A DNA stretch of 64,000 nt from Candidatus Nomurabacteria bacterium (GTDB lineage: Bacteria; Patescibacteriota; Saccharimonadia; JAGOAT01), in the NCBI GenBank assembly GCA_020639315.1, contig JACKGM010000001.1, positions 225,878 to 289,877 of the forward strand, read 5' to 3'. Positions 8,913 to 44,720 of the stretch are shown here, one piece after another. Numbering within the stretch: the first letter of the stretch is position 1; the number at the start of each line of letters is the position of its first letter. The translations under genes and the position numbers were made by a program. The notes under the pieces were generated by a model that was not told where the DNA came from, ran no database searches, and worked only from the letters and a program-made list of their open reading frames with translations.

Positions 8913-8918
8913 GTTATT

Positions 8919-11900: not shown

Positions 11901-12921
11901 GTTTGAAGTCATCCGCCGTCTCTTCGGTCCCTACTTCGCGATCGAAGATGGTTCAGCCACAGTGCTCGGGGAAATAGTCAAAGGTGTCTATCCTGAAGAC
12001 AATGACCTAGACATCACTCGTCATACCCACATCCTGACCGCCACCAATGAAATCTCTTCAATCTTCTGCTCACTAACCGAGATCATGGCAGCCGGAGAGA
12101 GTGTAGACTGTACTAGTCCTAGTGACCTAGCTGGAGCCGGATACCCAATCCGTCTAGACGGAGGTAGCAAGGACAACTTTGTCAATGTACTTGACTCAAT
12201 AGAGAGTCTAATCGCAGAACCAGACTCCTCCCCCTATGAAGTAGTTACTATTAACAACCTAAACCAAATCCCCCTTGACCTCAGTGATGGTAAGAGCCCA
12301 GACTTCGAACCTGATCCCAACTCCACCACTACCCCAGTCCCTTACCCCACCCTCTATGTCTATGATGGAGATCTAGAGATCTCAGCTAGTCAAGCTATGC
12401 ACTACAATGCAGGTCTAGCTACTATCTACGTCAGGGGTAATGTCTACATCAATGGAGACATCATCAGAGATGACAATACAGTGATAGAAGACATAGATGA
12501 GTATCCCAACCTAGGTATTATCTCTACTGGCAATATCTACATCAGACCAGACACCTCCAAATCAGTAGAGACTCCCCAAGTAATTGACGCCAGTCTCTTC
12601 GCCCAAGGTATGATCGAAACAGCCTACCGTCAAACCACTCAAACCCCAATCCCCGAATACTATACCAACCAACCCCTAATCTTCCATGGTACAGTAGCCT
12701 CCAAGGGAGATGAGAGTGTCCCAGGAGTCAAAGACCCAATCACCAATCAAGTCTATGCCTTCAAACTAAACAGGACCAATGTCTCAGTCACCCTAGGACA
12801 AGACTGTAACAATACTCAAGTCTCTGAATGCTTTGCACCAGACAACTCAATCTTTATTGCTACTCCTCCGGGGTTTGAGGATCGGTTGGGGGAACTAAAT
12901 AGTGATGAGATAGTATATTAG
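8992..12921 (+). CDS. Giant modular surface protein paralog 1 (1309 aa). It has an N-terminal TM anchor, DUF11-like 'conserved repeat domain' modules, and the shared ~330-aa C-terminal beta-helix-like domain.
   Basis: ATG with GGAGGG RBS. TM helix WLIAGLLFVIGLGLFAY. DUF11-like motifs VKFGPGESITYKISVQNISQYQAINVRVTDNDLP and GKPIKWRISVTNNGPDSAVSLVND. The 3' ~1 kb is near-identical to three downstream genes. Confidence 0.85.
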   Translation: MEENNNNQVGAKARKPRFTHWVRSEWLIAGLLFVIGLGLFAYQGNKPEQITEQPEPTTVLEEGQVAIVGDEILTEETLAGYVEYNQIDRNQAIDQWVDLKRMQIAAEQVGLDLVTGYTTRVGDYPGSFDDRDIELENQFYKEALSAELARQQAGKPVGGVMVWNFIKLGNSGQYEVDQETKDYAFAQAKDYKSRLESGEIKIVDAVAEQSLDPRVKFPTVGSISASFGYYPDQELVDTLRFNSKEVFDTIGSQDIAGISEILTYSTSQYQEKDGNIDAGYYLYYLDKANPARPQIEEEYNKADQEITVTIKDRESQETEAVSWISALAPIAEAADANGIPTQQELHWLVHSNPTAAAADYGVDPTVLNFALYFGVVTLDGQLYDSEVQWKIEGYLPDPEYKYKGTDVLECPDCDARIFGDARSFVAPDPNNMYPPGYDLGLPRIGNSVSTTTSDGNFDLLRNDGLVMDCFGAVAQIKVTATIPAIGKSITTPASGFRNILNTTITYDRFDFTSDPEPEEPEPAGDAEVEIKKWVINETETPGQPQDANTADRAVKFGPGESITYKISVQNISQYQAINVRVTDNDLPTQYADFSGWNGTWYVGNLSPGTYKKIEIKGTIKTEFQDYDYYTNTARVDYQYKVPCTAQEKLIHDIPYILASTSPPPCPDKILSGSDDDPANIKPKYADLKIVKTTYDTDNQTAYKGKPIKWRISVTNNGPDSAVSLVNDRGAIVQDRVPVESLQGETAKWYCNPTNYCQPNSGIVTRANPVIKTEVFLKNSYATVDIFIEGVVGPYIDGGSNVETIPTLEICNPSNDLLEVVSDTYVPWDPNEEDNTYERSCVPVVVCYDEDGNQLTNYPGVPFPDEYVHMVGVDNEGDDLYNPDNSNQVFDLNGYDIICRLPDPPPKEPGTKVCDVIGFYEDEKGNKTEIEVHRDLFQGSAAGADTTAVGHYTFEISCYETTESPTHSSIEFEVIRRLFGPYFAIEDGSATVLGEIVKGVYPEDNDLDITRHTHILTATNEISSIFCSLTEIMAAGESVDCTSPSDLAGAGYPIRLDGGSKDNFVNVLDSIESLIAEPDSSPYEVVTINNLNQIPLDLSDGKSPDFEPDPNSTTTPVPYPTLYVYDGDLEISASQAMHYNAGLATIYVRGNVYINGDIIRDDNTVIEDIDEYPNLGIISTGNIYIRPDTSKSVETPQVIDASLFAQGMIETAYRQTTQTPIPEYYTNQPLIFHGTVASKGDESVPGVKDPITNQVYAFKLNRTNVSVTLGQDCNNTQVSECFAPDNSIFIATPPGFEDRLGELNSDEIVY
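11896..12892. repeat. Copy 1 of the ~1-kb near-identical 3' coding tract (EVIRRLFGPYFAIEDG...ATPPGFEDR) shared by four giant genes.
   Basis: Nucleotide strings are identical to 17118-18107, 24165-25152 and 32325-33315, apart from a handful of SNPs. Confidence 0.9.
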
Positions 12922-19980: not shown

Positions 19981-20857
19981 AGGAGTGCAGGTCATCGCTA
20001 GCATTGTCCTGGTAGGCTTAACTATCCTAGGAGGATACCACTACTGGCGATCAAATCAATCAGTCAGTGCAAAATTGATCCTGGAGGAGTATCAGGACTT
20101 TTATCATTTAGAAGAAAATCGGTACCTTGGTGACAAAGGAGAGGGAAGGTTGGATTTGATCCAGTTGGACGGAGACAGGCCTAGGGTCGATCAGTCGATT
20201 GATTATATCAGCTATTTTGTAATCCCTAGTCAGGTGATTATTTTTGACCAGGCTGGAGTCAGTGCATACTCTACTAGAGACTTTTCTAAGCAGAACCAAG
20301 ACGGTCAGTATATTCTGGGCAATCTTGACGGGGATAATATTTACCTTGATCAAGCTGGGAGCAATGACGATGATACTCTGGTCAGACTAGATTATAGGCT
20401 CAGGGGTGAACTTGTCGGTGAAGAGTTGGTGACCAGCTTGGAGGTAGCACCGATTTTTGCTAATATCGGTACCAATCATTATAGGCTGGTCTTTGATCAG
20501 TTGACCGCTACACTTGCAGTCACCCCGATCGACAAAGACTTTGAAGCGTCTGGTCAGACTGTCAGCTACAACAATGTCAAGACTTGGCGAATCGAGCAAG
20601 ATTATCTCGCGATTGACTTGTTGGATGATAGTGGTCAGAGATTTGTGGCTGAAGATTTGCTTGAGCTAAACACTACACCCTTGATCGGGCTTTGTGTTGA
20701 TTATCAATTGGGCAAGGATTACCTTTATCTAGATTATAAGACTAGACTTGATTTGCCAGCTGAGATCGATAATCAGTCCAAAGTTTATTGTCATCAAGAT
20801 AATATTTATATTTGGCTTGGACAAAAGCTATATGAGGCAAAAAGAGATGAAGTCTAG
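19970..20857 (+). CDS. Hypothetical N-terminally anchored protein (295 aa). The start overlaps the upstream stop by 11 nt (ATGGCAAATAG).
   Basis: ORF in the track begins at 19925. The internal ATG at 19970 (MANRGVQVIASIVLVGLTILGG) gives a signal anchor and an 11-nt overlap, as seen at other junctions here. No recognisable domain. Confidence 0.5.
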   Translation: MANRGVQVIASIVLVGLTILGGYHYWRSNQSVSAKLILEEYQDFYHLEENRYLGDKGEGRLDLIQLDGDRPRVDQSIDYISYFVIPSQVIIFDQAGVSAYSTRDFSKQNQDGQYILGNLDGDNIYLDQAGSNDDDTLVRLDYRLRGELVGEELVTSLEVAPIFANIGTNHYRLVFDQLTATLAVTPIDKDFEASGQTVSYNNVKTWRIEQDYLAIDLLDDSGQRFVAEDLLELNTTPLIGLCVDYQLGKDYLYLDYKTRLDLPAEIDNQSKVYCHQDNIYIWLGQKLYEAKRDEV

Positions 20858-23800
20858 ACTGTTGATATTCGGTATCCTGATAGTCGGAGTTTTTGGTCTG
20901 ATGCAGATGGTTCGACCTAGCTTGGCTGGGACTGAGCCTCCAACCCCTGAGCTTAGCCAAGAGGCATTTGACAAGGCTTTTAATCTTGAGCCCGACCAGT
21001 TTGAAGACTTTAAGACAGTCTATGGCAAGAGTGAGTATAGCCCCTTTTATGCCAAGGTTAGCCCAGCGACTCCCGAAGTCGGAAATCTTTGCTGGAAAAC
21101 AGCGGAGGAGACTGATACTGAGGCAGAGCCAACCCAATCCCAGCTAGAAGATCCTGAGTATCAGCAGTCCTTGGAGGATTGTCAGGATTGGTTGATTTCT
21201 CTCAATCCGTATTTAGCTAGAGAGATTTACCGGGATTATCTCAAGACTACCGATTGGTTCAAGGGCAGCGAATCACTGTCGGACAATGATCTGATCTATG
21301 GCAAGATGGGGGTAATGGTTTACTGCCAGGTATTGGGTCAAGATTATCAATTGAGCTTTGACGATGATAAGCAGAAGTGTTTAGAATCGATTACTGACTA
21401 TGATCAGACTGACGAAGCAGGGGTTTGTAAGGATCTAGAAGAGTTTGGGTACAATTGGGAAGATCAAGCTTGTAAGTATAGTCTGGAGTCATCAGATAAT
21501 TCTGAGCTAGATCAAGCTATAGATCAGCTTGACTTAGACCAGAACTCTAGTGCCGACGCTGGTGGTGGCCCTCCTGCAGGTAAAGTTTTAGGCAGAATAA
21601 ACGCTAGTGGGGAGTGTGAAGTAGACAATCCAATCTTGCAGTGGTGTCCACCGGTAGTGCTTGATGCGGCTGCTCCGACTGGCACTAGTGTCAGTGGCCT
21701 AGGGACTGAACCGAGAAAGGGCATACCTGATCCGCCCCGTAGCTCTGAGATTAGTAACAAGCCTGACGATTTGGGTGAGCGAGAACGCCCCGTCATCTCG
21801 ATCAAAAAATACGTCGGTCACACAGTAGATGATCTCAGTGATGCCCAAGACTCAGCTACAGCTGTCAAGTTCTATCCTGGTCAATCGATAGTCTATCAAG
21901 TAGTAATTACTCATCAGTCTGGAGCAGATGCGACCAAAGTAGTCTGGTCTGATGAAAACCTTGATGGATTTGTCTCAGGTGGACTGATGGAACTAGGAGA
22001 TTGGACTAGTGATACTCAAGTAGATGACATCTTCTCCTTCCCTCTCAAACAAGGAGAAGAGATTACCTTCTTAAGAGAAGGCACAATCTCCCTAGATGCT
22101 GGTCTCTTCGGTCTAGATCAAGAATCAGTTCTTAACTCAACTGCTGCCCTTGAAAACATCGCCAGTGTCGATGAACTCAATGATGCTGATCCTGGGATTG
22201 CTAGTAGTGATCCCGCTAATATCTTACCAATGCTTTCAGACCTCACCCTCCGTAAGCAAGTCTCCAACCTCACCGAAACCCCATTCCTCTCCCCAGGCAC
22301 AAGTCCCTACTACCTCAGTGATGGTCCTATCTACTATGATGCAGATAGTATAGACAATGCAGTCTCCTTCGGTCCTAGTGAAGAGATAGAGTACCGTATA
22401 GAGATAATAAACAACGGTCCAGACGAAGCCACCTCTATCAGCTTCACTGATCCTGATCTCCCAGATGAGCTAGTAGACTGGGAGTCAGACGGCTGGATCA
22501 ACGCTGAGACTGGTGAAACCGTATCCTCAGGAGATACCATCTTCCCAATCCCAGCCGAAGGAGCTCCGACTGAATTCCTCTGGCCTGAAGAGTCCAAGAC
22601 GATTGATCCTGAGACCAAAGCAGAAACCACAGTCAACAATATCACTGAAGGTAAGAGAGTCAGAATAGTCCTAACCAAGAAAGGTAGAATCAAGAACGAC
22701 CTAGCTAATACCGATTGGTTCCAGTCTAATACTGCTCACCAAAACACTGCAGAAGTCTCTACTATCAATCCAGAAACCAACTATGACAACAATACCAACG
22801 ATGCCTACATCGACCCCAAGGTCACAGACATCATCATCGGTAAAGTCGGTCAGACTGGTAATGACACTGGTCTAGCAGGTAAAGAACTAACTTGGACGAT
22901 TAGAGTAGTCAACAATGGTAAAGACTCAGCTATCTCTCTCGTAGACAATGGAGGAATCAAGCTAACCGACTACCTCAACCTCAAAGACACCTACAATGAA
23001 ACAGTTACCTATCAATGTGTCCCTGCCTATGCCTGCAGTGTCCCAACCGGAGAAATCAACTCCACTGACAATCCCGAAGGTATCCTAGACCTAGAACTCT
23101 ACCTCGGCCCTGGCTTTGGAGACATGGAGCAAGTAGACTTCATCGATATCCTCTCAGATGAGGAGCTGTCAGCCAACCAAACCGACACTACCAACAACAA
23201 CACCACCACCAACAACAACACTAACACCACTAACACCAATAACACCAACACCACCACCAACACTAACACTACCAACAACACTACCAACAACACTGACACC
23301 ACCCAAACCACCAATACTGATCTAACCACCCTCCCCGTCTGTGAGACTGGTAGATTCATCGGTATTAACAAGGCTACTGACACTACTACAGGCTTCAACC
23401 CCGATATCAACGAGGATGGCAATGGAGACCTCTATGTTCTCTTCAATACCAATTGCTTTAGCTCCTACCCTGACCTCAGCCACTTCGAGCTAACAGACCT
23501 CTCCCTTAGCAGTGATGAAGTAGTCAACTACCTCACCCAGTATCAAGGTGGTAAAATTGCTTACTATCAAACCCCTACTCACCTAAACACCACCAATCAA
23601 GTAGACATCCAAATCACCGCTAGACTAGCTGACCATGTCACCTATGGTGATGATGTCACTACTCAAGCAGTAGATGAGATCTGTAATCCTAGTGACAAGA
23701 ACAACCCTGATCAAAAAGTCCATGTCGAAAAGACCGAAACCGTAGCCTGGGAATTGTCACTAGACAATAACACCGCTCCCCTAAGATGTATCCCAGTAAT

Positions 23801-25163
23801 GCTCTGTTACAACGAAGATGGTCAAGCCTTAGCTAGCTATCCCGGTAAAGAAGGAGAAGACTTCTATCTCTCATTCGTCGGAGTAGACAATGAAGGTAAC
23901 AAACTCTATGATCAATCTCTAGATGAACTAATCGCTAGAGATGACTTAGCAGGACTAGATGTGATCTGTCGTAAGCCTACTACCTGTGAGCTTAAAGTAA
24001 CGCGGACGATAGTACTAGCCAATGGTACAGAAGAAACCACTGATGTCGAAGTCACCGAACTATTTGATGGCTCAGCTGCTGGTGCTGATACCACTGACCT
24101 CGGATACTACAACTTTAGCCTAGAGTGTCAAAACCTCGAAGACGGACAATCCCCCAACCTCACGATTGAAGTCATCCGCCGTCTCTTCGGTCCCTACTTC
24201 GCGATCGAAGATGGTTCAGCCACAGTGCTCGGAGAAATAGTCAAAGGTGTCTATCCTGAAGACAATGACCTAGACATCACTCGTCATACCCACATCCTGA
24301 CCGCTACCAATGAAATCTCTTCAATCTTCTGCTCACTAACCGAGATCATGGCAGCCGGAGAGAGTGTAGACTGTACTAGTCCTAGTGACCTAGCTGGAGC
24401 CGGATACCCAATCCGTCTAGACGGAGGTAGCAAGGACAACTTTGTCAATGTACTTGACTCAATAGAGAGTCTAATCGCAGAACCAGACTCCTCCCCCTAT
24501 GAAGTAGTTACTATTAACAACCTAAACCAAATCCCCCTTGACCTCAGTGATGGTAAGAGCCCAGACTTCGAACCTGATCCCAACTCCACCACTACCCCAG
24601 TCCCTTACCCCACCCTCTATGTCTATGATGGAGATCTAGAGATCTCAGCTAGTCAAGCTATGCACTACAATGCAGGTCTAGCTACTATCTACGTCAGGGG
24701 TAATGTCTACATCAATGGAGACATCATCAGAGATGACAATACAGTGATAGAAGACATAGATGAGTATCCCAACCTAGGTATTATCTCTACTGGCAATATC
24801 TACATCAGACCAGACACCTCCAAATCAGTAGAGACTCCCCAAGTAATTGACGCCAGTCTCTTCGCCCAAGGTATGATCGAAACAGCCTACCGTCAAACCA
24901 CTCAAACCCCAATCCCCGAATACTATACCAACCAACCCCTAATCTTCCATGGTACAGTAGCCTCCAAGGGAGATGAGAGTGTCCCAGGAGTCAAAGACCC
25001 AATCACCAATCAAGTCTATGCCTTCAAACTAAACAGGACCAATGTCTCAGTCACCCTAGGACAAGACTGTAACAATACTCAAGTCTCTGAATGCTTTGCA
25101 CCAGACAACTCAATCTTTATTGCTACTCCTCCGGGGTTTGAGGATCGGCTTAGCTCAGAGTGA
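20847..25163 (+). CDS. Giant modular surface protein paralog 3 (~1438 aa). It has an N-terminal signal anchor, an acidic Cys-containing unique region, shared module A, the 2.9-kb shared module and the shared C-terminal domain.
   Basis: Start moved from 20748 to the ATG at 20847 (MKSRLLIFGILIVGVFGLMQMV), which overlaps the upstream stop by 11 nt. The sequence from 22215 onward is identical to 15265-18107 and 30385-33315. Confidence 0.8.
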   Translation: MKSRLLIFGILIVGVFGLMQMVRPSLAGTEPPTPELSQEAFDKAFNLEPDQFEDFKTVYGKSEYSPFYAKVSPATPEVGNLCWKTAEETDTEAEPTQSQLEDPEYQQSLEDCQDWLISLNPYLAREIYRDYLKTTDWFKGSESLSDNDLIYGKMGVMVYCQVLGQDYQLSFDDDKQKCLESITDYDQTDEAGVCKDLEEFGYNWEDQACKYSLESSDNSELDQAIDQLDLDQNSSADAGGGPPAGKVLGRINASGECEVDNPILQWCPPVVLDAAAPTGTSVSGLGTEPRKGIPDPPRSSEISNKPDDLGERERPVISIKKYVGHTVDDLSDAQDSATAVKFYPGQSIVYQVVITHQSGADATKVVWSDENLDGFVSGGLMELGDWTSDTQVDDIFSFPLKQGEEITFLREGTISLDAGLFGLDQESVLNSTAALENIASVDELNDADPGIASSDPANILPMLSDLTLRKQVSNLTETPFLSPGTSPYYLSDGPIYYDADSIDNAVSFGPSEEIEYRIEIINNGPDEATSISFTDPDLPDELVDWESDGWINAETGETVSSGDTIFPIPAEGAPTEFLWPEESKTIDPETKAETTVNNITEGKRVRIVLTKKGRIKNDLANTDWFQSNTAHQNTAEVSTINPETNYDNNTNDAYIDPKVTDIIIGKVGQTGNDTGLAGKELTWTIRVVNNGKDSAISLVDNGGIKLTDYLNLKDTYNETVTYQCVPAYACSVPTGEINSTDNPEGILDLELYLGPGFGDMEQVDFIDILSDEELSANQTDTTNNNTTTNNNTNTTNTNNTNTTTNTNTTNNTTNNTDTTQTTNTDLTTLPVCETGRFIGINKATDTTTGFNPDINEDGNGDLYVLFNTNCFSSYPDLSHFELTDLSLSSDEVVNYLTQYQGGKIAYYQTPTHLNTTNQVDIQITARLADHVTYGDDVTTQAVDEICNPSDKNNPDQKVHVEKTETVAWELSLDNNTAPLRCIPVMLCYNEDGQALASYPGKEGEDFYLSFVGVDNEGNKLYDQSLDELIARDDLAGLDVICRKPTTCELKVTRTIVLANGTEETTDVEVTELFDGSAAGADTTDLGYYNFSLECQNLEDGQSPNLTIEVIRRLFGPYFAIEDGSATVLGEIVKGVYPEDNDLDITRHTHILTATNEISSIFCSLTEIMAAGESVDCTSPSDLAGAGYPIRLDGGSKDNFVNVLDSIESLIAEPDSSPYEVVTINNLNQIPLDLSDGKSPDFEPDPNSTTTPVPYPTLYVYDGDLEISASQAMHYNAGLATIYVRGNVYINGDIIRDDNTVIEDIDEYPNLGIISTGNIYIRPDTSKSVETPQVIDASLFAQGMIETAYRQTTQTPIPEYYTNQPLIFHGTVASKGDESVPGVKDPITNQVYAFKLNRTNVSVTLGQDCNNTQVSECFAPDNSIFIATPPGFEDRLSSE
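22215..25152. repeat. Copy 2 of the ~2.9-kb near-identical coding module. It carries the expanded TN linker at about 23170-23300.
   Basis: Direct comparison with 15265-18107 and 30385-33315. Confidence 0.9.
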
Positions 25164-25185
25164 TTTTCTGGAATCAGGCTAATGA

Positions 25186-25250
25186 GGGGGGGCATTGTCA
25201 CCCTCCGAATTCTCCTTGTCCTGTCATTCTCCAAAATCCCCTATTCCCCT
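25186..25250. repeat. Degenerate remnant of the MITE-like family 1 element in the short spacer between two giant genes.
   Basis: gggcattgtcaccctccgaattctccttgtcctgtcattctcc matches the gggcattgtcatcctccgaattctccttgtcctgtcatcctccgaag unit seen at 33590 and 34880. Confidence 0.6.
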
Positions 25251-25277
25251 TGCCAAGACTATGGCGGTTGTGGTTAA

Positions 25278-28200
25278 ATGAAAAAGAGAAGTTTATATAA
25301 ACCAAATAAAAGTGAGGGAAAGTTGAGTAATACAAAGTTTAATTTGAGGCATTTACTACTAAGTCTAAGTGGTGTCTTGGTAGTCGTGGCTATCAGCATT
25401 GGGATAGTCAAATTCATCGACTATAGCAATCCCGTGGTCGTCAGTATTGACGGAGTCGAGATCCGAGAAAACACCTTTGACAAAAATATCGAGCTAGGTA
25501 AAGACTACGACAATGGTAGAGAAGACATAGTCAATGCCACAATCGACCTCGAAGCTTGGAAGAAAATCAACCAAAACCTCGGAGTTGTCCCTCCCGACTC
25601 CTTTATCATGGAGTATGCTAGTCGATATACCGAGCAGGCAGTCAAAGAAAACGTAATCCTCCAAAAGAACCTCTACAAATACGCCACCGAGCAAATGATG
25701 CTCAATCAATACTACGGGCTCTATGATGGCGCAGTATTTGTCTTCCCATATGCCAATTTTGATCAGGGAGCTACAACGGAAGAGCAAGCCTACGCCAAGC
25801 AAAAAGCTGAGGAGTACCTAGCGAGATTTTCTAGTGGCGAAGATCCCAGATCACTAATCGACGAGATCTATGCAGATAGGAGCCTAGAGCCAGCCGTCGA
25901 TGCCCAAAATCCATCGACAATCCTCGGATTTTACGAAGATCAGAGCCCCTATGATCAATACAGGATGGGCTACTCAGAGCTACTCAATGATATTTGGTCG
26001 ATCGAGAATCGTGGTACTAGTCAGATAGTCGATATCCCTGAAGATAGAGAAAATCGTTCTGGTGGATACTACTATTTCTACAATATCAATGATTATCAGT
26101 CTCCGAGGCTAGATATCCAAGAGAGCTATGATACAGAAGTCGAGAGAATAGCTACAGACTTGACTACCCAAGCAGACAAGATCAATCGAGTCGGTCAGAG
26201 TACGGTATCCTTCCTCGGTAATAAACTCAAGGATTTAGCAATCCAGCCAGCTTACGCCAAGGATACTGTCGAGGCTCATCAGTCTGGGCCAAGTGTGCTA
26301 TTAAAGCTGATGAACGATAAGAGCTATGAGGGTAGGACACTGATCGAGCGGTTCGCTGATGTCTCTGGTAGGGTATTGGGTAGCAATGGAGATCCTTACC
26401 CCAATGCTATCGTCAGGATTAAATACAAAGATGTGCTTAAGCAAAATTGTGCAGAGTGTGATAGTGCCTTTGTCGATGTCGGTAAGATTGGTTTGGGTTC
26501 ATCTACCAATGAAAACGCTCCTCGAGTAGACTACCGCAAGGCAGGTATAGGTAAGCTCCATGATACTCCTGAGATGCAGGGTTATCACGACTATGTCGAG
26601 GTGATTTCAGGGGAGAGTGGGTATTTCTCTCTATCTGCTATTGACATAGTGTTTGACTGTAATCGCGTCAAGACAGAGTACGGAGATGGTCATCCAATAG
26701 ATGTCAATATGGAAGCCTTGGATGTCTATAAAGATGCAGAGATATCACTGGGAGGGCTAGATAGTATCAACGATCAGATAGCGATAGTCGATACTGAGCA
26801 AGTAGGGGGTAATATCGACCTTGCTTTCGCCAAGCCAGAGCATGATAGTGGATACTTGGATCGACTAGCCAGCACAGTCGGAAGTATCTTCCAGCTCGCC
26901 CGGATACCTTTAGTCCAAGGGGCGCAAGGGGGTTATGGGGAGTTAAAACCCGATGAGAATAATCAACTTGTGGACCTAGAGGATAAGAGATTCGGCCATT
27001 ATAGGGATAAGATTCAATATTTTAGAGAGAAAAGTGAGATGAATCTTGACTCTAATTTCGCAGCTGAACAATATAATTCCTATGATCCAGCTGGAAACAT
27101 AGATAAAGAGACAATGGCTTCAATTTTACTTGATACAGTAAACGGATATCTTACAGACCCGGATTTCCAGATTAATAAAGATCAGGCGCAGGGTTTAGTA
27201 GGTCTTTTATTTGCATGTGATGTTATTTATCAGGAGGGGGATAATGAAAACTATTGGTACTATGCCAATCTTATAGACAGTGATGGTAATCATCCACTGG
27301 ACTGCATGTCGCATTTTGTAGTCGAGGATGTCTTGATGGCAATTGGGATGGACCTAAGGGTAGATAATGTCTATACCAACCCTACCTTCCCCCATGCTTT
27401 CCAGGTTGATTTTCGGGAACCCCCTGAGAATTGGCCTAATGATCGGGAAGGAACAGGATCAGCAAAGGATGGGTTTGTAGTATTTTGCGAGGCAACAGGT
27501 TACAAAACAAACGATGCTAGGGATAGGTGTATACTGGATAAGTCTGATACAGAGCAAGCAACCGACGAATCAGACGACGATAACTTTGCTGAACCTAACA
27601 AACTTGCAAGGCAATGTAGCTATTTTCTTTGGGAGTTAGACCAAGCAAGGTACGAAGCGCTAGAAGGTAGAGATTGTACGAGCCTTGTGGATAAGGGAGA
27701 AGTAGGTTCTCTTAATGGAATATCAAGACGGACATTATGTGTTGATCGTTGGGGGTATACGTTTGGTAGCAACCAATGTGTCCCACCTGATGGTGTAACA
27801 TACCCTTCTAGGCGGGAAAGTTTTTGTAAAAATATAACAAATTTCATATTTAGTAATAATAGATGCAATATGTCAGGATACGAGCAAGGCGCAAGTCTGG
27901 AGCTAGCAGAAGAGTATAAAAATGCAGTATTTGGAGATGCAGTTAATGCTTCTCCGGCTCAACTTTGCTCCGACTTTTACGTAGCATTAGAGATTATGCC
28001 ACCTGGGACATATAATAGTTATGAAATGCTTAGTCAATATGGGCTGACGAATGGGAAGTATGTCTGTGATCCTAACAATTATGAGTTTAACTCTGAGACA
28101 GAGAAATATCAACTTAAAGAGAGAGGCTCTTCCTCTGACAATGAGTCTCCTAACGACGGTGTTAGCCCTGAGGTAGGCTCTACTACAGAAGACCGCCGTT

Positions 28201-31200
28201 CTTCTCTTTGTTCACAGTATTTTATCGATAAGTTGGCAGGGAAGGACTTAGATGGGTACAATGACCTAGAGTGTAACTTGAAGGAGGCTTACGATAGCTC
28301 AGATGGTGGTGACGGTCTTTCGGTAAAAGAAACATGTGTATTAATCAATCTAACTTTAAATTCTACAATAAATGATGACGGTACAACCTGTAGTAATATT
28401 GGTACAACTGGAGCTAAGATATGTACTGGCTTGGGGGCTACCACATCAGACGATACTTGCGATATGGAAAAAATAAAGAGTATTAGTGACATCGAGAGAG
28501 GAAAGCTGTTTTTTTCAGCCTATTACGCTACGCTAGAAGACGATGAACGTAAGGAAGATTATATATGTATCGGTAAATATCGTCAGCTATATACTATGCC
28601 TCACGATAACTTAGAAGCAAGCGACTTTAATGCAATAGATTGTGTAGTCCCAGAGGACGGTGGTAATTCACAAGATAGTAATATTGAAACCCCACTGGTC
28701 TCCCCAAATGATAGTTTTACCGAGACAGAGGGAGATGACGGAGTCAAGTCAATTAAGTTGGCTGAAGGATTAGATGATTACCAATCTTATTGTGAACAGG
28801 GTCTGGAGGGAACCTATCTAGATACAGATACTGACGATGACAAGCCTGGGGTTTGTAATGGTATAGATTCTACAAAAATCGATCAGCAATTCTGTACTGC
28901 AGCCGGGGGGACAGTACTCACAGACGAAACCAACACCGAGACTGATAGTGAAGATGAGGATAGTAATGCAGAAGGCACCAATACTACTTGGATCGATAGG
29001 GTGATCGATAGGGTGTTTGCCGCTTCTGATGAAGAAGATGACGATAACTCTACAGGTAGTGGTGATACTACGGCTGAGACCTACGGCTGTGACTTTAGTG
29101 AGGCGGGAGATTTTGACAAAGATAAGATCGAGGCGGCTTTGACCGAGCTGGCTAATACCCCTACAACCCCCGCCAACCCAAACAGCTCCGCAGGTGGTAG
29201 CAATAGCTCCGCCAATGCCGGCGGTGCCCCCAACGGTGTTGCTATTAGTACTGCTACAGGTAAGCCATGTAACCAAAATGAAATAAGACTCAAGAGCAAT
29301 GGCTGTGGACAGAGACAAACACTGGCGACGAGACAACCCAACCAAATAAGGACAAACGGCAATTCCCCTACTCCCCAAACTCCACCACCAGGAGGAGGTA
29401 CTACTACAGGTGAGCCTCCTCAGGCTCCTGATGATGGCCTAGATCCCCCCGAGGGGCCCGATGTCCCTGATCAGCCCGATGACCTTCCAGAGAGACCTGT
29501 AGTCTCGATCAAAAAATACGTCGGTCACACAGTAGATGATCTCAGTGATGCCCAAGACTCAGCTACAGCTGTCAAGTTCTATCCTGGTCAATCGATAGTC
29601 TATCAAGTAGTAATTACTCATCAGTCTGGAGCAGATGCGACCAAAGTAGTCTGGTCTGACGAAAACCTTGATGGATTTGTCTCAGGTGGACTGATGGAAC
29701 TAGGAGATTGGACTAGTGATACTCAAGTAGATGACATCTTCTCATTCCCTCTCAAACAAGGAGAAGAGATCACCTTCTTAAGAGAAGGCACAATCTCCCT
29801 AGATGCTGGTCTCTTCGGTCTAGACCAAGAATCAGTTCTTAACTCAACTGCTGCCCTTGAAAACATCGCCAGTGTCGATGAACTCAATGATGCTGATCCT
29901 GGGATTGCTAGTGGTGATCCTGCTAATATCTTGCCGACGATAGCCGAAGTCAAGCTCGATAAGCTAGTCAGCAATATTAGTGACAATATCTTGGATCAGC
30001 CAGCCGATGACTTAGAACATACTGTCTTTTTCGGTCCTGGAGAAGAAATCGAATACAAAATGGTCATCACCAACGAGGGTCCAGACGGAGCAGTCGGTCT
30101 GATTTGGGCTGATGATAGTCTGCCGACTTTTGCTACCTTTGAAGGCTGGAAGCTTGAGGATGGCTCAGATGCTCCCGAGATGCTATTTGACCCTTCAGTA
30201 TCAGAAGATACACTAGAGTCAGGAGAATCAATTACCCTGATCAACCGTGGTCGGATCAATCCTGATGCTGGAGACTTCGGAGTCGGTACTAGCCTAGACC
30301 CCCGGGGTGGCTATGAGAATATAGCCTCAGTCGATCCTCTGACCCACGATAGCAACCTAGAAAACAATACCAACCCAGCCTGGATCTCCCCCAAGCTAGT
30401 CGACCTCACCATCAAAAAACAAGTCTCCAACCTCACCGAAACCCCATTCCTCTCCCCAGGCACAAGTCCCTACTACCTCAGTGATGGTCCTATCTACTAT
30501 GATGCAGATAGTATAGACAATGCAGTCTCCTTCGGTCCTAGTGAAGAGATAGAGTACCGTATAGAGATAATAAACAACGGTCCAGACGAAGCCACCTCTA
30601 TCAGCTTCACTGATCCTGATCTCCCAGATGAGCTAGTAGACTGGGAGTCAGACGGCTGGATCAACGCTGAGACTGGTGAAACCGTATCCTCAGGAGATAC
30701 CATCTTCCCAATCCCAGCCGAAGGAGCTCCGACTGAATTCCTCTGGCCTGAAGAGTCCAAGACGATTGATCCTGAGACCAAAGCAGAAACCACAGTCAAC
30801 AATATCACTGAAGGTAAGAGAGTCAGAATAGTCCTAACCAAGAAAGGTAGAATCAAGAACGACCTAGCTAATACCGATTGGTTCCAGTCTAATACTGCTC
30901 ACCAAAACACTGCAGAAGTCTCTACTATCAATCCAGAAACCAACTATGACAACAATACCAACGATGCCTACATCGACCCCAAGGTCACAGACATCATCAT
31001 CGGTAAAGTCGGTCAGACTGGTAATGACACTGGTCTAGCAGGTAAAGAACTAACTTGGACGATTAGAGTAGTCAACAATGGTAAAGACTCAGCTATCTCT
31101 CTCGTAGACAATGGAGGAATCAAGCTAACCGACTACCTCAACCTCAAAGACACCTACAATGAAACAGTTACCTATCAATGTGTCCCTGCCTATGCCTGCA

Positions 31201-33326
31201 GTGTCCCAACCGGAGAAATCAACTCCACTGACAATCCCGAAGGTATCCTAGACCTAGAACTCTACCTCGGCCCTGGCTTTGGAGACATGGAGCAAGTAGA
31301 CTTCATCGATATCCTCTCAGATGAGGAGCTGTCAGCCAACCAAACCGACACTACCAACAACAACACCACCACCAACAACAACACTAACACCACTAACACC
31401 AATAACACCAACACCACCACCAACACTAACACTACCAACAACACTACCAACAACACTGACACCACCCAAACCACCAATACTGATCTAACCACCCTCCCCG
31501 TCTGTGAGACTGGTAGATTCATCGGTATTAACAAGGCTACTGACACTACTACAGGCTTCAACCCCGATATCAACGAGGATGGCAATGGAGACCTCTATGT
31601 TCTCTTCAATACCAATTGCTTTAGCTCCTACCCTGACCTCAGCCACTTCGAGCTAACAGACCTCTCCCTTAGCAGTGATGAAGTAGTCAACTACCTCACC
31701 CAGTATCAAGGTGGTAAAATTGCTTACTATCAAACCCCTACTCACCTAAACACCACCAATCAAGTAGACATCCAAATCACCGCTAGACTAGCTGACCATG
31801 TCACCTATGGTGATGATGTCACTACTCAAGCAGTAGATGAGATCTGTAATCCTAGTGACAAGAACAACCCTGATCAAAAAGTCCATGTCGAAAAGACCGA
31901 AACCGTAGCCTGGGAATTGTCACTAGACAATAACACCGCTCCCCTAAGATGTATCCCAGTAATGCTCTGTTACAACGAAGATGGTCAAGCCTTAGCTAGC
32001 TATCCCGGTAAAGAAGGAGAAGACTTCTATCTCTCATTCGTCGGAGTAGACAATGAAGGTAACAAACTCTATGATCAATCTCTAGATGAACTAATCGCTA
32101 GAGATGACTTAGCAGGACTAGATGTGATCTGTCGTAAGCCTACTACCTGTGAGCTTAAAGTAACGCGGACGATAGTACTAGCCAATGGTACAGAAGAAAC
32201 CACTGATGTCGAAGTCACCGAACTATTTGATGGCTCAGCTGCTGGTGCTGATACCACTGACCTCGGATACTACAACTTTAGCCTAGAGTGTCAAAACCTC
32301 GAAGACGGACAATCCCCCAACCTCACGATTGAAGTCATCCGCCGTCTCTTCGGTCCCTACTTCGCGATCGAAGATGGTTCAGCCACAGTGCTCGGAGAAA
32401 TAGTCAAAGGTGTCTATCCTGAAGACAATGACCTAGACATCACTCGTCATACCCACATCCTGACCGCTACCAATGAAATCTCTTCAATCTTCTGCTCACT
32501 AACCGAGATCATGGCAGCCGGAGAGAGTGTAGACTGTACTAGTCCTAGTGACCTAGCTGGAGCCGGATACCCAATCCGTCTAGACGGAGGTAGCAAGGAC
32601 AACTTTGTCAATGTACTTGACTCAATAGAGAGTCTAATCGCAGAACCAGACTCCTCCCCCTATGAAGTAGTTACTATTAACAACCTAAACCAAATCCCCC
32701 TTGACCTCAGTGATGGTAAGAGCCCAGACTTCGAACCTGATCCCAACTCCACCACTACCCCAGTCCCTTACCCCACCCTCTATGTCTATGATGGAGATCT
32801 AGAGATCTCAGCTAGTCAAGCTATGCACTACAATGCAGGTCTAGCTACTATCTACGTCAGGGGTAATGTCTACATCAATGGAGACATCATCAGAGATGAC
32901 AATACAGTGATAGAAGACATAGATGAGTATCCCAACCTAGGTATTATCTCTACTGGCAATATCTACATCAGACCAGACACCTCCAAATCAGTAGAGACTC
33001 CCCAAGTAATTGACGCCAGTCTCTTCGCCCAAGGTATGATCGAAACAGCCTACCGTCAAACCACTCAAACCCCAATCCCCGAATACTATACCAACCAACC
33101 CCTAATCTTCCATGGTACAGTAGCCTCCAAGGGAGATGAGAGTGTCCCAGGAGTCAAAGACCCAATCACCAATCAAGTCTATGCCTTCAAACTAAACAGG
33201 ACCAATGTCTCAGTCACCCTAGGACAAGACTGTAACAATACCCAAGTCTCTGAATGTTTTGCACCGGACAACTCAATCTTTATCGCTACTCCTCCGGGGT
33301 TTGAGGATCGGCTTAGCTCGGAGTGA
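25278..33326 (+). CDS. Giant modular surface protein paralog 4 (2682 aa). Its N-terminal anchor and ~500-aa module are homologous to the M15-peptidase protein. It also has a long acidic Cys-rich region, module A, an extra DUF11-like module, the 2.9-kb shared module and the shared C-terminal domain.
   Basis: ATG at 25278. TM LLLSLSGVLVVVAISIGIV. DUF11-like motifs VKFYPGQSIVYQVVITHQSGADATKVVWSDENL and VFFGPGEEIEYKMVITNEGPDGAVGLIWADDSLP. Identical tracts as described above. Confidence 0.85.
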   Translation: MKKRSLYKPNKSEGKLSNTKFNLRHLLLSLSGVLVVVAISIGIVKFIDYSNPVVVSIDGVEIRENTFDKNIELGKDYDNGREDIVNATIDLEAWKKINQNLGVVPPDSFIMEYASRYTEQAVKENVILQKNLYKYATEQMMLNQYYGLYDGAVFVFPYANFDQGATTEEQAYAKQKAEEYLARFSSGEDPRSLIDEIYADRSLEPAVDAQNPSTILGFYEDQSPYDQYRMGYSELLNDIWSIENRGTSQIVDIPEDRENRSGGYYYFYNINDYQSPRLDIQESYDTEVERIATDLTTQADKINRVGQSTVSFLGNKLKDLAIQPAYAKDTVEAHQSGPSVLLKLMNDKSYEGRTLIERFADVSGRVLGSNGDPYPNAIVRIKYKDVLKQNCAECDSAFVDVGKIGLGSSTNENAPRVDYRKAGIGKLHDTPEMQGYHDYVEVISGESGYFSLSAIDIVFDCNRVKTEYGDGHPIDVNMEALDVYKDAEISLGGLDSINDQIAIVDTEQVGGNIDLAFAKPEHDSGYLDRLASTVGSIFQLARIPLVQGAQGGYGELKPDENNQLVDLEDKRFGHYRDKIQYFREKSEMNLDSNFAAEQYNSYDPAGNIDKETMASILLDTVNGYLTDPDFQINKDQAQGLVGLLFACDVIYQEGDNENYWYYANLIDSDGNHPLDCMSHFVVEDVLMAIGMDLRVDNVYTNPTFPHAFQVDFREPPENWPNDREGTGSAKDGFVVFCEATGYKTNDARDRCILDKSDTEQATDESDDDNFAEPNKLARQCSYFLWELDQARYEALEGRDCTSLVDKGEVGSLNGISRRTLCVDRWGYTFGSNQCVPPDGVTYPSRRESFCKNITNFIFSNNRCNMSGYEQGASLELAEEYKNAVFGDAVNASPAQLCSDFYVALEIMPPGTYNSYEMLSQYGLTNGKYVCDPNNYEFNSETEKYQLKERGSSSDNESPNDGVSPEVGSTTEDRRSSLCSQYFIDKLAGKDLDGYNDLECNLKEAYDSSDGGDGLSVKETCVLINLTLNSTINDDGTTCSNIGTTGAKICTGLGATTSDDTCDMEKIKSISDIERGKLFFSAYYATLEDDERKEDYICIGKYRQLYTMPHDNLEASDFNAIDCVVPEDGGNSQDSNIETPLVSPNDSFTETEGDDGVKSIKLAEGLDDYQSYCEQGLEGTYLDTDTDDDKPGVCNGIDSTKIDQQFCTAAGGTVLTDETNTETDSEDEDSNAEGTNTTWIDRVIDRVFAASDEEDDDNSTGSGDTTAETYGCDFSEAGDFDKDKIEAALTELANTPTTPANPNSSAGGSNSSANAGGAPNGVAISTATGKPCNQNEIRLKSNGCGQRQTLATRQPNQIRTNGNSPTPQTPPPGGGTTTGEPPQAPDDGLDPPEGPDVPDQPDDLPERPVVSIKKYVGHTVDDLSDAQDSATAVKFYPGQSIVYQVVITHQSGADATKVVWSDENLDGFVSGGLMELGDWTSDTQVDDIFSFPLKQGEEITFLREGTISLDAGLFGLDQESVLNSTAALENIASVDELNDADPGIASGDPANILPTIAEVKLDKLVSNISDNILDQPADDLEHTVFFGPGEEIEYKMVITNEGPDGAVGLIWADDSLPTFATFEGWKLEDGSDAPEMLFDPSVSEDTLESGESITLINRGRINPDAGDFGVGTSLDPRGGYENIASVDPLTHDSNLENNTNPAWISPKLVDLTIKKQVSNLTETPFLSPGTSPYYLSDGPIYYDADSIDNAVSFGPSEEIEYRIEIINNGPDEATSISFTDPDLPDELVDWESDGWINAETGETVSSGDTIFPIPAEGAPTEFLWPEESKTIDPETKAETTVNNITEGKRVRIVLTKKGRIKNDLANTDWFQSNTAHQNTAEVSTINPETNYDNNTNDAYIDPKVTDIIIGKVGQTGNDTGLAGKELTWTIRVVNNGKDSAISLVDNGGIKLTDYLNLKDTYNETVTYQCVPAYACSVPTGEINSTDNPEGILDLELYLGPGFGDMEQVDFIDILSDEELSANQTDTTNNNTTTNNNTNTTNTNNTNTTTNTNTTNNTTNNTDTTQTTNTDLTTLPVCETGRFIGINKATDTTTGFNPDINEDGNGDLYVLFNTNCFSSYPDLSHFELTDLSLSSDEVVNYLTQYQGGKIAYYQTPTHLNTTNQVDIQITARLADHVTYGDDVTTQAVDEICNPSDKNNPDQKVHVEKTETVAWELSLDNNTAPLRCIPVMLCYNEDGQALASYPGKEGEDFYLSFVGVDNEGNKLYDQSLDELIARDDLAGLDVICRKPTTCELKVTRTIVLANGTEETTDVEVTELFDGSAAGADTTDLGYYNFSLECQNLEDGQSPNLTIEVIRRLFGPYFAIEDGSATVLGEIVKGVYPEDNDLDITRHTHILTATNEISSIFCSLTEIMAAGESVDCTSPSDLAGAGYPIRLDGGSKDNFVNVLDSIESLIAEPDSSPYEVVTINNLNQIPLDLSDGKSPDFEPDPNSTTTPVPYPTLYVYDGDLEISASQAMHYNAGLATIYVRGNVYINGDIIRDDNTVIEDIDEYPNLGIISTGNIYIRPDTSKSVETPQVIDASLFAQGMIETAYRQTTQTPIPEYYTNQPLIFHGTVASKGDESVPGVKDPITNQVYAFKLNRTNVSVTLGQDCNNTQVSECFAPDNSIFIATPPGFEDRLSSE
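30385..33315. repeat. Copy 3 of the ~2.9-kb near-identical coding module. It carries the expanded TN linker at about 31340-31470.
   Basis: Direct comparison. A few SNPs near the end (e.g. aatacccaagtctctgaatgttttgcaccggac vs aatactcaagtctctgaatgctttgcaccagac). Confidence 0.9.
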
Positions 33327-33510
33327 TTTTCTGGAATCAGGCTATAAGGATTTAGACTCAGAATTGTTAGTTTACAAGGAGTCATAATAGCATTATGGCG
33401 AAGAAGTGAATTAGCAATTCTGGGCTAAATAATAGAGCGTGAGCCTGAAGGGTTACTTCGAGTTAGGCCGTTAGGTTGGGGGAGACTAACCAGGCTAACT
33501 AGGGGGGTAC

Positions 33511-33996: not shown

Positions 33997-34026
33997 TCTC
34001 TCTCCCTTTGTGCTACACTAGAGACA

Positions 34027-34764: not shown

Positions 34765-34767
34765 TCA

Positions 34768-35079
34768 AGATTCAAATACTGGATCTCCGGTATTTCTCTA
34801 AAGAGAAATCCGAAGATGACAGGAGGAGGTGGATCTCCGGTATTACCCTCCGGGTAATCCGAAGATGACAGGAGGAGGGCATTGTCATCCTCCGAATTCT
34901 CCTTGTCCTGTCATCCTCCGAAGTTCGGAGAACTTACGGGGGATCCAGTATCCCTGTATTTACAGGTATTCAATTCAAATACTGGATCTCCGGTATTTCT
35001 CTTTTAGAGAAATCCGAAGATGACAAGAAGGGCATTGTCATCCTCCGAAGTTCGGAGAACTTACGGGGGATCCAGTATC
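34768..35079. mobile_element. MITE/REP-like family 1 cluster downstream of miaA.
   Basis: Same arm, hairpin and sub-repeat signatures in both orientations. Confidence 0.75.
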
Positions 35080-37466: not shown

Positions 37467-37509
37467 GATTTTTGGGCAACTCCGAGATACTAGACTTCTA
37501 AGTAGTACG

Positions 37510-44705: not shown

Positions 44706-44720
44706 GAGAGTATAAATGCG

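Follow-up and report, generated by a model that had tools for sequence, protein, structure and literature searches.

Introduction

CPR bacteria, Saccharibacteria among them, live on host bacteria, to which they attach by proteins that are mostly unknown. Gene conversion among paralogs is a well-known route of adhesin-family evolution, and the bab/sab/alp outer-membrane adhesin paralogs of Helicobacter pylori evolve in concert in this way. In the Rib/alpha-C and SasG/Aap proteins, domain number is polymorphic as a result of in-register recombination between repeats that are near-identical in DNA and slip often. The DUF11 domain is now called CLIPPER; it is an isopeptide-bond domain of CnaA-like type and builds the stalks of fibrillar adhesins, with some DUF11 domains lacking the isopeptide bond (PMC12617251). 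Giant CPR membrane proteins with DUF11 have been proposed to function in host attachment in Vampirococcus lugosii (PMC8080830). For gene conversion between paralogous surface-protein genes in H. pylori, compare PMC5971833.

We analysed a 64,000-nucleotide stretch (the window) of a Candidatus Saccharibacteria (CPR) chromosome in which four neighbouring giant surface-protein genes carry near-identical blocks behind different front ends. The reading that we favour, with a probability of roughly 75%, is that genes 1–4 are an old tandem family resembling fibrillar adhesins that evolves in concert by gene conversion, a mechanism that we infer from the distribution of identity among the copies.

Results

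Four tandem genes with their own front ends and common back ends

The four genes and the two genes between genes 2 and 3 are arranged as follows.

8992..12921, + strand: gene 1, 1309 aa; only the last ~1 kb (11903-12898) is common block, at 99.4-99.8% identity
12983..18136, + strand: gene 2, 1717 aa; own 5' half and own first DUF11 unit, common from U2 to the end (~15272-18103)
18151-19980, + strand: gA, transmembrane (TM) protein with an N-module like gene 4 aa 34-512 and a VanY/M15 peptidase
19985-20857, + strand: gB, TM protein, no family assigned
20847..25163, + strand: gene 3, 1438 aa, from the ORF and its translation
25278..33326, + strand: gene 4, 2682 aa

In all four genes a long reading frame stays intact across every junction, opening with the gene's own start codon and a signal peptide or TM anchor at the N-terminus. 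In three of the proteins this is a TM anchor, joined to an N-module of ~300 aa with weak likeness to parvulin/PrsA (hhalign probability 46%). The 5' part of each gene is its own and is followed by 2–4 DUF11/CLIPPER Ig-like units, which would form a stalk, a Thr/Asn-rich linker and the C-terminal region. The extent of sharing differs by block: module A is common to genes 3 and 4, the sequence from U2 to the end to genes 2, 3 and 4, and the last ~1 kb to all four, with flanks on both sides of the shared blocks at a random 19-26% identity. The C-terminal region of ~600 aa, of which the last ~330 aa are common to genes 1–4, is almost without relatives; we found no annotated relative of it, and its AlphaFold model has a pLDDT of 30. 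Outside the window, recognisable family members were present in only two Saccharibacteria MAGs, and scans of genome collections found no further loci.

Taking as thresholds for DUF11/CLIPPER membership the gathering cut-off of Pfam PF01345 (24.6 bits) and the cut-off of NCBIfam TIGR01451 (24), the whole proteins scored 27-49 bits and 27-53 bits, respectively. Like DUF11/CLIPPER (PF01345) fibrillar adhesins such as Acinetobacter silvestris B9T28_05395 (PDB 9IFR; PMC12617251), they are long, predicted to be secreted and equipped with a signal peptide or anchor, with several tandem DUF11 units in the middle of the protein, non-repeat ends, and a unit number that varies among related proteins. Unlike in those adhesins, the units in the window are long, at 149-196 aa, and share only 25-33% identity with one another, module A scores below the Pfam cut-off, there is no known adhesive or sorting domain, and the C-terminal ~600 aa have almost no counterpart elsewhere. 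The TM anchor and N-module with which three of the proteins start are also unusual for adhesins generally. Genes 1–4 thus appear to encode secreted or membrane-anchored proteins that resemble fibrillar adhesins, with surface adhesion suggested by domain type only.

Gene 3 joins a 5' region of its own to modules shared with gene 4

Gene 3 encodes, in order, a signal peptide, a unique N-terminal region, module A, U2, U3, a Thr/Asn-rich linker and the C-terminal region. Gene 4 encodes a TM anchor and N-module, a gA-like middle, a long Cys-rich acidic region, module A, unit X, U2, U3, the linker and the C-terminal region. The parts that distinguish or unite the two genes upstream of U2 are the following.

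20847..21795, + strand: gene-3-specific 5' region, 949 bp; signal peptide and Cys-containing acidic region
21796..22225, + strand: gene 3 copy of module A (protein unit aa 313-461), a divergent DUF11/CLIPPER-like unit
29503..29932, + strand: module A, gene 4 copy, from blastn and alignment to the gene 3 copy
29937..30392 (approximately), + strand: unit X, aa 1554-1705, 152 aa; extra DUF11/CLIPPER unit of gene 4 only

The ATG of gene 3 at 20847 overlaps the gB stop by 11 nt, and both this start and the signal peptide are annotated likewise in two other assemblies (P0007, P0008), ruling out that gene 3 is a frameshifted fragment; it is a complete gene. Gene 4 has nothing that corresponds to the first 949 bp of gene 3 (blastp E>1), apart from a low-complexity linker. 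The same region is 58% identical at the amino acid level in a second Saccharibacteria species, with Cys residues and motifs conserved in the alignment with P0008.

By blastn, 21796-22262 pairs with 29503-29969 at 95.7% identity over 467 bp, far beyond chance. The preliminary description had reported a ~450-bp repeat, 21790-22235 identical to 29500-29940. Its position holds to within ~10 bp and the peptide quoted for it is present in the translations of both genes, but the copies are not identical, which that description had made the test of its claim: the core (21796-22225 versus 29503-29932) contains 6 mismatches in 430 bp (98.6% identity), five of them synonymous and one changing Ser to Gly. 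Immediately left of 21796, ungapped identity between genes 3 and 4 drops to 26%, a random level. We found no third copy of either module A or X in the window by blastn. Scanned alone, module A scored 18.8 bits against Pfam DUF11 (E=0.002, profile positions 8-103 of 114), below the 24.6-bit cut-off, and its link to the family runs through 32% identity to X and shared motifs; module A is therefore best called DUF11-like.

Gene 4 contains one additional, old DUF11 unit

Downstream of module A, the offset of gene 4 relative to gene 3 rises from +7707 to +8163, a difference of exactly 456 bp (152 codons) that is extra in gene 4, in frame and in register with domain boundaries. This segment, unit X, contains VFFGPGEEIEYKMVITNEGPDGAVGLIWADDSLP and scored 32.9 bits against Pfam DUF11, above the cut-off, bearing out the earlier proposal of an extra DUF11-like unit at 29940-30385 in gene 4 only; U2 scanned alone scored 25.7 bits. 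X is 30-33% identical to A, U2, g1_U1 and g2_U1 (about 32% at best versus any unit), and an identity of only ~30% to all other units argues against a recent insertion by duplication. As judged from this divergence, X has long been a unit in its own right and did not arise by fresh duplication. The difference between the two genes would represent one stalk domain added or removed in register, either by a gain of X in gene 4 or by its loss from gene 3. In this respect the genes resemble Rib/alpha-C and SasG/Aap, in that they differ by one Ig-like unit, in frame, with breakpoints at domain boundaries. Unlike in those systems, X is ~30% identical to its neighbours and the junction has diverged, suggesting that the indel is old and is not a product of slippage.

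The AlphaFold2 model of X is an all-beta sandwich with a weak pLDDT of 60.5. In a Foldseek search of the PDB with this weak model, the best match had E=0.0097 and none reached E<=0.001; CLIPPER 9IFR ranked 8th (E=0.03, TM 0.30-0.35). In the unit alignment, candidate motifs for a Lys-Asn isopeptide bond with a catalytic Asp are visible in A, X and U2: xIKKxV supplies the Lys of the first strand, (T/S/A)Dx(D/N/S)L the Asp and xNxAxV the Asn.

The shared 3' block and its edges

Downstream of module A, genes 3 and 4 share a longer block, separated from A in gene 3 by a short junction.

22226..22265, + strand: A/U2 junction of gene 3, 40 bp; encodes the first strand of U2 (MLSDLTLRKQVSN)
22266..25181, + strand: gene 3 copy of the shared 3' block, spanning U2, U3, the linker and the C-terminal region and ending 18 bp beyond the stop codon
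30429..33344, + strand: shared 3' block, gene 4 copy, matching the gene 3 copy
23155..23360, + strand: Thr/Asn-rich linker, 6-9-bp ACC/AAC repeats

The gene 3 junction has 16 mismatches in 40 positions to the A-X side of gene 4 and 12 in 40 to the X-U2 side (60-70% identity); being unlike both gene 4 junctions, it does not look like a fresh deletion product. Over 2813 bp, 22266-25078 and 30429-33241 match without a single mismatch; the final 85 bp contain 5. The gene 2 copy of the block differs from that of gene 3 by 6 substitutions and a 78-bp indel in the linker. Gene 4 has the same linker as gene 3 (31318-31523), and that of gene 2 is shorter by 78 bp; the linker repeats are in frame. Overall, once X is left out, the 3' 48% of gene 4 is the counterpart of the 3' 78% of gene 3 (21796-25163).

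Divergence among the copies is uneven. Module A has 6 differences in 430 bp, versus none in 2813 bp downstream (Fisher p=5e-6), and the 3' tail has 5 in 85 bp versus the same 2813 bp (p=2e-8). Sites at which gene 2 is the odd one out all lie before 24233 (6/6), and the sites at which gene 4 alone differs from genes 1–3 all lie at 25079-25121 (4/4; p=0.005 for the ordering, jointly with the gene 2 sites). The closest paralog of gene 3 consequently changes near the 3' end, from gene 4 for 2813 bp to genes 1 and 2 in the tail. Mismatches between copies are T/C, C/A and A/G, and mostly synonymous.

An old gene family with copies most alike within the window

We compared the window with GCA_017983775.1, a second species whose proteins are 58-72% identical to those of the window. 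One of its contigs (L002) carries a gene 1 ortholog (P0003, 72% amino acid identity) that runs into the C-block. A second (L004) carries the end of a C-block, gA, gB, a gene 3 ortholog (58%) and module A, so that the junction between the unique 5' end and A, the order gA-gB-gene 3, with gA and gB directly 5' of gene 3, and the 11-nt gene overlap are all kept. By this comparison, the paralogs are older than a speciation.

Despite this age, the window copies are more similar to one another than to the second species. The between-species DNA comparison spans only 112-127 bp at block edges. The first 112 bp of module A show 0 differences between the window copies versus 16 to the second species (p=2e-5), and the first 127 bp of the C-block show 0-1 differences within the window versus 9-10 to the second species. 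In the last 118 bp of the C-block there are 8 fixed differences to the second species, common to all four window copies; the protein is the same in both species, and all differences are synonymous, indicating that selection on the protein cannot account for the DNA identity. Overall, window paralogs are 98.6-100% identical and the second-species copy is 86-93% identical.

The preliminary description had seen in gene 3 a recombinant of a gene-4-type 3' part and a different 5' end, and in this direct evidence of cassette shuffling. The composite anatomy stands. That gene 3 is a recent recombinant, made from a gene-4-type 3' part minus X and an unrelated 5' end, with near-identity reflecting youth, would fit the perfect match over 2813 bp and the 98.6% identity of module A, the lack of any relationship between the 5' 949 bp and gene 4, and the tandem direct orientation, which would permit unequal crossing-over. 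We nevertheless consider this origin improbable. The junction of the 5' end to A and the gA-gB-gene 3 order occur in a species in which the gene 3 N-terminus is 58% identical, indicating that the fusion is old. In addition, the levels of divergence in A and in the 3' block are significantly different, which a single event cannot explain, the gene 3 A/U2 junction fits neither gene 4 junction, and the gene 3 tail agrees with genes 1 and 2 and not with gene 4. Shuffling as a recent event is thus unsupported.

Three contig ends of GCA_017983775.1 lie 112, 118 and 127 bp inside shared blocks, and in GCA_020428505.1, a MAG of the same species as the window, contig L003 stops 107 bp into module A. 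Contig ends within blocks are the expected short-read break at repeats, and these positions make it probable that those genomes also carry the blocks more than once. That same-species short-read MAGs break exactly at these repeats might also point to an assembly or polishing artefact, with repeats collapsed, chimerically joined or homogenised by read mis-mapping. We regard this as very unlikely. The 5' 4.6 kb of gene 4 are matched at 99.8% in an independent MAG contig (L001), and both transitions from a unique 5' end to A are confirmed in an independent assembly (L001, 99.8%; L003, 100%); intact long reading frames pass through every junction in four genes; the differences between copies are clustered and mostly synonymous, unlike random errors; and the X indel comprises exactly one domain and keeps the reading frame. 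The perfect 2.8-kb identity could be partly exaggerated by assembly polishing, and the A-U2 junction in gene 3, like the A-X-U2 path in gene 4, is known from this one assembly.

Programmed antigenic or phase variation (pilE/pilS, vlsE or msp2 type), or a diversity-generating retroelement target, would account for surface-protein paralogs with common cassettes, signs of conversion and a short-repeat linker of varying length, but is most unlikely, since all four copies are full-length ORFs with no promoterless partial cassette, recombination homogenises the common blocks instead of diversifying them, mismatches are not adenine-specific, the in-frame linker repeat provides no frameshift switch, and no reverse transcriptase was found among window ORFs scanned against Pfam.

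Discussion

The block map, the uneven divergence, the architecture in the second species and the excess of within-genome over between-species identity are direct observations. They correspond to what gene conversion is expected to leave: paralogs that predate speciation, greater likeness within than between genomes, including at synonymous sites, and mosaic tracts. Under concerted evolution, repeated non-reciprocal homologous recombination (gene conversion, possibly together with unequal crossing-over) between direct-repeat paralogs would keep the blocks alike. Conversion tracts would end where homology ends, which is at the left boundary of module A, at the 456-bp indel of X and shortly after the stop codon, and these limits would leave the unique 5' ends and X as stable differences between genes. 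Gene 3 would then be a long-standing composite, its 3' 78% continually overwritten by, or overwriting, its neighbours.

The locus resembles H. pylori bab/sab/alp in its divergent 5' parts, on the receptor side in those adhesins, its near-identical 3' parts, its mosaic tracts with sharp edges, and an identity that is higher within a genome than between lineages. Unlike in H. pylori, the window copies are adjacent and in direct orientation, the homogenised part is soluble with no beta-barrel, and the organism is a CPR episymbiont. Between tandem paralogs, gene conversion accompanied by an in-register domain indel is a textbook mechanism, so that known biology is here extended to a new lineage and not changed. 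Like the V. lugosii proteins (PMC8080830), those of the window are very large, membrane-localised by prediction, contain adhesion-type domains including DUF11, and are encoded by a reduced, episymbiont-type genome. Unlike those proteins, they are tandem paralogs with common near-identical cassettes, which are not described there, and the DUF11 domain type is the only sequence relationship between the two.

Near-identical blocks of 0.4-3 kb break short-read MAG assemblies, suggesting that CPR genome catalogues probably contain too few such families. We consider it a speculative and improbable extension that the cluster is a host-attachment diversification locus, in which recombination swaps and resizes CLIPPER cassettes and 5' recognition parts while a C-terminal 'tip or anchor' of new fold stays constant. 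If this were true, strains would differ in front ends joined to a common back end, governing host range, and the conserved coupling of gene 3 to the VanY-type peptidoglycan peptidase gA would hint at a cell-wall-directed attack or attachment module. The locus provides a concrete candidate family, almost without relatives elsewhere, whose variable front ends, variable-length stalk and strictly homogenised back end resemble the adhesin families of pathogens.

A cluster of genes for giant, predicted surface proteins

ORF calling and translation placed module A and the extra unit X, both putative stalk units, of the DUF11/CLIPPER type (X) or resembling it (A), within a cluster of very large ORFs that all lie on the same strand.

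Genes of the cluster, with the shared N-terminal module where present
8992-12921, gene 1, giant surface protein, 1309 aa; N-terminal module 8992-9981
12983-18136, gene 2, giant surface protein, 1717 aa; N-terminal module 12983-13972
18151-19980, gA, 609 aa; N-terminal module 18151-19140
19985-20857, gB, 290 aa
20847-25163, gene 3, giant surface protein, 1438 aa
25278-33326, gene 4, giant surface protein, 2682 aa; N-terminal module 25278-26267

Genes 1, 2 and 4 and gA have in common an N-terminal TM anchor and a ~300-aa module, with 20-25% identity. In gA, the anchor and module (25% identical to gene 4 aa 34-512) are followed by a C-terminal VanY/M15 D-Ala-D-Ala carboxypeptidase domain. The N-terminal module weakly matched the parvulin PPIase part of a PpiC/SurA-like ORF at 45571-46773 (hhalign probability 46%, E=2e-4), and could be a foldase module, PrsA-like and degenerate, that the giant surface proteins have gained by fusion. 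The front end of gene 3 consists of a signal peptide that looks cleavable and an acidic, Cys-containing region of its own, which shows no similarity to gene 4 except for a short Pro/Asp linker directly before module A. Distant homology of the gene 3 N-terminus or gB to the middle of gene 4 was rejected, the sole match being a low-complexity linker (E=0.003-0.01). A promoter and terminator scan of the cluster gave nothing above chance.

Because ORFs 18151-19980 and 19925-20857 abut gene 3 in shifted frames, we examined the possibility that gene 3 is the frameshifted 3' piece of a larger gene starting at 18151. The structure of the three genes rules this out: the VanY domain of gA is complete and the protein ends naturally, gB begins with a TM segment, and gene 3 begins with a signal peptide, its ATG at 20847 leaving an 11-nt overlap with the end of gB. 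Two other assemblies carry annotations of all three genes. The overlapping trio, conserved in two species, suggests that a predicted peptidoglycan peptidase is co-expressed with gene 3.

Extent and identity of the shared blocks

We mapped the shared blocks by self-blastn of the window. Positions 21796-22262 matched 29503-29969 (95.7% over 467 bp), and 22239-25181 matched 30402-33344 (99.66% over 2943 bp). Gene 2 enters the shared 3' block from ~15272, and gene 1 shares just its last ~1 kb (11903-12898, 99.4-99.8%). The preliminary description had reported module A as identical in genes 3 and 4; the repeat is real and was correctly placed, but in ungapped register (+7707) its core (21796-22225 vs 29503-29932) has 6 mismatches in 430 bp, five synonymous and one changing Ser to Gly, and is therefore near-identical. 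To the left of module A, identity between the two genes falls to 26%, as in random sequence. To its right, gene 3 carries a 40-bp stretch that mismatches gene 4 at 16/40 positions on the A-X side and at 12/40 on the X-U2 side, after which the register shifts by exactly 456 bp. Beyond this junction, 22266-25078 and 30429-33241 are identical at all 2813 positions, followed by 5 mismatches in the last 85 bp, 18 identical bases past the stop codon, and then random sequence. The extra unit of gene 4 was borne out as a segment of 152 codons that contains the peptide originally quoted for it, and the anatomy first proposed for gene 3 also held: leaving X aside, its 3' 78% corresponds to the 3' 48% of gene 4, and it is preceded by a 5' end that gene 4 does not have.

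A Thr/Asn-rich linker, coded by 6-9-bp ACC/AAC repeats, lies 3' of the units. It is identical in genes 3 and 4 and shorter by 78 bp in gene 2, an in-frame, microsatellite-like length polymorphism between paralogs.

Thr/Asn-rich linkers
~16206-16345, linker of gene 2
23155-23360, linker of gene 3
31318-31523, linker of gene 4

Identity of the putative stalk units

DUF11 repeats, recently renamed CLIPPER (PMC12617251), were the sole Pfam/NCBIfam domains found in genes 1-4. Scored as single units against Pfam DUF11 (cut-off 24.6 bits), X reached 32.9 and U2 25.7, with module A below the cut-off at 18.8. The aligned units have a common frame, from an xDLxIxKxV-like start to a DPAxIxP end, and their alignment showed that X accounts for a difference of exactly one unit, in register, between genes 3 and 4.

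Putative stalk units of each gene
Gene 1: U1, U3'
Gene 2: U1, U2, U3
Gene 3: A, U2, U3
Gene 4: A, X, U2, U3

Mutual identity among A, X, U2 and the first units of genes 1 and 2 is only 25-33%, indicating that X is an old unit and not a fresh duplicate; recent tandem duplication of A or U2 was ruled out by the 31-32% identity of X to each. An AF2 model of X was an all-beta sandwich of low confidence (pLDDT 60.5) with no significant match among PDB folds, 9IFR ranking eighth at E=0.03. With the model this weak and its fold unmatched, the putative assignment of the units to the DUF11/CLIPPER fold comes from sequence profiles only.

Relatives in other genomes

Recognisable family members were found only in Candidatus Saccharibacteria MAGs. 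Two scans of an assembled-genome contig collection and two of a metagenome contig collection revealed no members or other module combinations. A protein homology query with the middle of gene 4 plus module A also returned none; this query, which missed the known protein match P0001 as well, was probably swamped by low-complexity words.

Assembly GCA_020428505.1 represents the same species as the window. Its contig L003 is 100% identical to 18715-21902 and ends 107 bp inside module A, and its contig L001 is 99.8% identical to 25245-29880 and also ends inside module A; together they provide independent confirmation of the two places where a unique 5' end passes into module A. Between the strains, gene 4 differs at 4/378 bp in module A (L001 4259-4636 vs 29503-29880) and at 6/4258 bp in the unique 5' part. 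At one of these module A sites, gene 4 of L001 has the state of gene 3 in the window, which could reflect exchange between paralogs, or a chimeric consensus where the short-read contig ends.

Assembly GCA_017983775.1 represents a different species. On its contig L002 lie orthologs of the upstream genes and, at 72% aa identity, of gene 1; the contig breaks off 127 bp inside the block that genes 1-4 have in common. Its contig L004 picks up with the final 118 bp of that block, continues into orthologs of gA and gB (L004 164-2831) and of gene 3 (58% aa identity, same 11-nt overlap), and ends 112 bp into module A. The composite architecture of gene 3 and its operon-like coupling to gA and gB are therefore older than the species split. 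K-mer assemblers break contigs at repeats, and contig ends 107-127 bp inside the blocks fit this behaviour; from these ends we infer that the shared blocks are repeated in both other assemblies too.

Probable homogenisation of the paralogs

Wherever the second species could be compared, the paralog copies of the window agreed with one another and differed jointly from GCA_017983775.1, including in the C-block, the 3' region (last ~1 kb) common to genes 1-4.

Differences among window copies and from the second species
Module A, first 112 bp: 0 among window copies; 16 from the other species (Fisher p=2e-5)
C-block, first 127 bp: 0-1 among window copies; 9-10 from the other species
C-block, last 118 bp: 4 polymorphic sites among window copies; 8 differences from the other species fixed in all four

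The protein coded by the last 118 bp is identical between the species, so the DNA differences there are synonymous, and the identity of the paralogs at the DNA level cannot be put down to selection on the protein. Divergence between genes 3 and 4 is also uneven, both module A (6/430, p=5e-6) and the 3' tail (5/85, p=2e-8) exceeding the 0/2813 of the intervening block. The closest paralog of gene 3 changes along the block, being gene 4 for 2.8 kb and genes 1 and 2 in the tail (ordering test, p=0.005); in the tail, gene 4 alone differs from genes 1-3 at 4 clustered synonymous sites, 2 of which match the other species. The simplest account is that old tandem paralogs undergo repeated gene conversion, with tracts that would end at heterology, namely at the left edge of module A, at the X indel and shortly beyond the stop codon. 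The anatomy of gene 3 had been taken as direct evidence of domain-cassette shuffling; modules were indeed combined differently in the past, but the near-identity of the blocks in genes 3 and 4 probably reflects ongoing homogenisation, not a recent join.

An assembly or polishing artefact behind the A-U2 and A-X-U2 paths, or behind the exact 100% figure, keeps a small probability, but the reading frames are intact, the differences between copies are mostly synonymous and clustered, and independent contigs agree. Three observations contradict an origin of gene 3 in one recent recombination: contig L004, the uneven divergence along the block and the diverged A/U2 junction. A simple recent deletion from gene 4 is likewise ruled out, since this junction differs from each of the two in gene 4. 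Every copy is a complete gene with its own start and a signal peptide or TM anchor, which does not fit antigenic variation of the cassette type. Nor does a diversity-generating retroelement fit, since the differences between copies are not confined to adenines and the window ORFs scanned contained no reverse transcriptase.

The C-terminal region

Relatives of the last ~600 aa of the proteins are all but absent. When the C-terminal 613 aa were searched exhaustively with HMMER against 1.84 billion representatives, 5 matches came up, of which only P0003, the gene 1 ortholog of the second species, is a true family member. PDB sequence searches gave no significant match, and tblastn against phage and plasmid collections found no family members. 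A Pfam scan of the last 339 aa and the weak protein matches P0004-P0006 left their shared motif without any match reaching the cut-off; the only relevant one was a sub-threshold DUF7305 match in P0006 (E=0.03), and the strong VWA/SEA domains of P0005 are unrelated to this surface-protein family. The AF2 model of the region was unusable (pLDDT 30).

Other features of the surroundings

The core TTCGGAGGATGAC characterises a dispersed family of intergenic repeats, which had 66 matches in 64 kb (0.03 expected), all between genes, and flanks the cluster on both sides. The repeats often form 28-29-bp tandem arrays (e.g. 8642-8913, 9.4 copies) with inverted-repeat partners, and matched no Rfam family; the other species also has the family upstream of its gene 1 ortholog (L002 9828-9892).

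Repeats with the core TTCGGAGGATGAC
8071-8913, repeats
25197-25209 (-), degenerate copy in the gene 3-gene 4 spacer
33519-35080, repeats
37500-38050, repeats
43031-43167, repeats
44711-45175, repeats
48080-48296, repeats
51180-51347, repeats
55435-56004, repeats
58879-59324, repeats
61640-62093, repeats

Upstream of the cluster, a 2415-aa ORF (58-7305) contains an 831-bp tandem repeat (688-5012) of ~5.2 copies that are mutually 100% identical. In the other species, the orthologous region (L002 5770-6726) contains just one unit, with 85.5% identity, indicating that the expansion is lineage-specific and very recent, or that the copies have been homogenised. Further predicted surface or secreted proteins lie nearby, amid the housekeeping genes murT/gatD, ftsK, recA, valS, ruvAB and rny.

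Nearby predicted surface or secreted proteins
51390-52439 (-), cadherin-like/Big_9
56733-57113 (-), T2SS-G (pilin-like)
57863-58810 (-), lamin-tail-domain
62174-63292 (+), CAP-domain

Function and significance

A role in host attachment has been proposed for giant CPR membrane proteins that contain DUF11 (PMC8080830). Judging from their domain types, the products of genes 1-4 are likely to lie on the surface of a CPR bacterium that lives as an episymbiont and to resemble fibrillar adhesins, in which case the CLIPPER units would form a predicted stalk of 2-4 domains behind front ends that differ by gene; we infer that the common C-terminal region is a working tip or retention module. Concerted evolution of adhesin paralogs, together with in-register domain indels, is well known, for example in the bab/sab/alp families of Helicobacter. 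The lineage that carries genes 1-4 has been little studied, and their large C-terminal region is almost without relatives.
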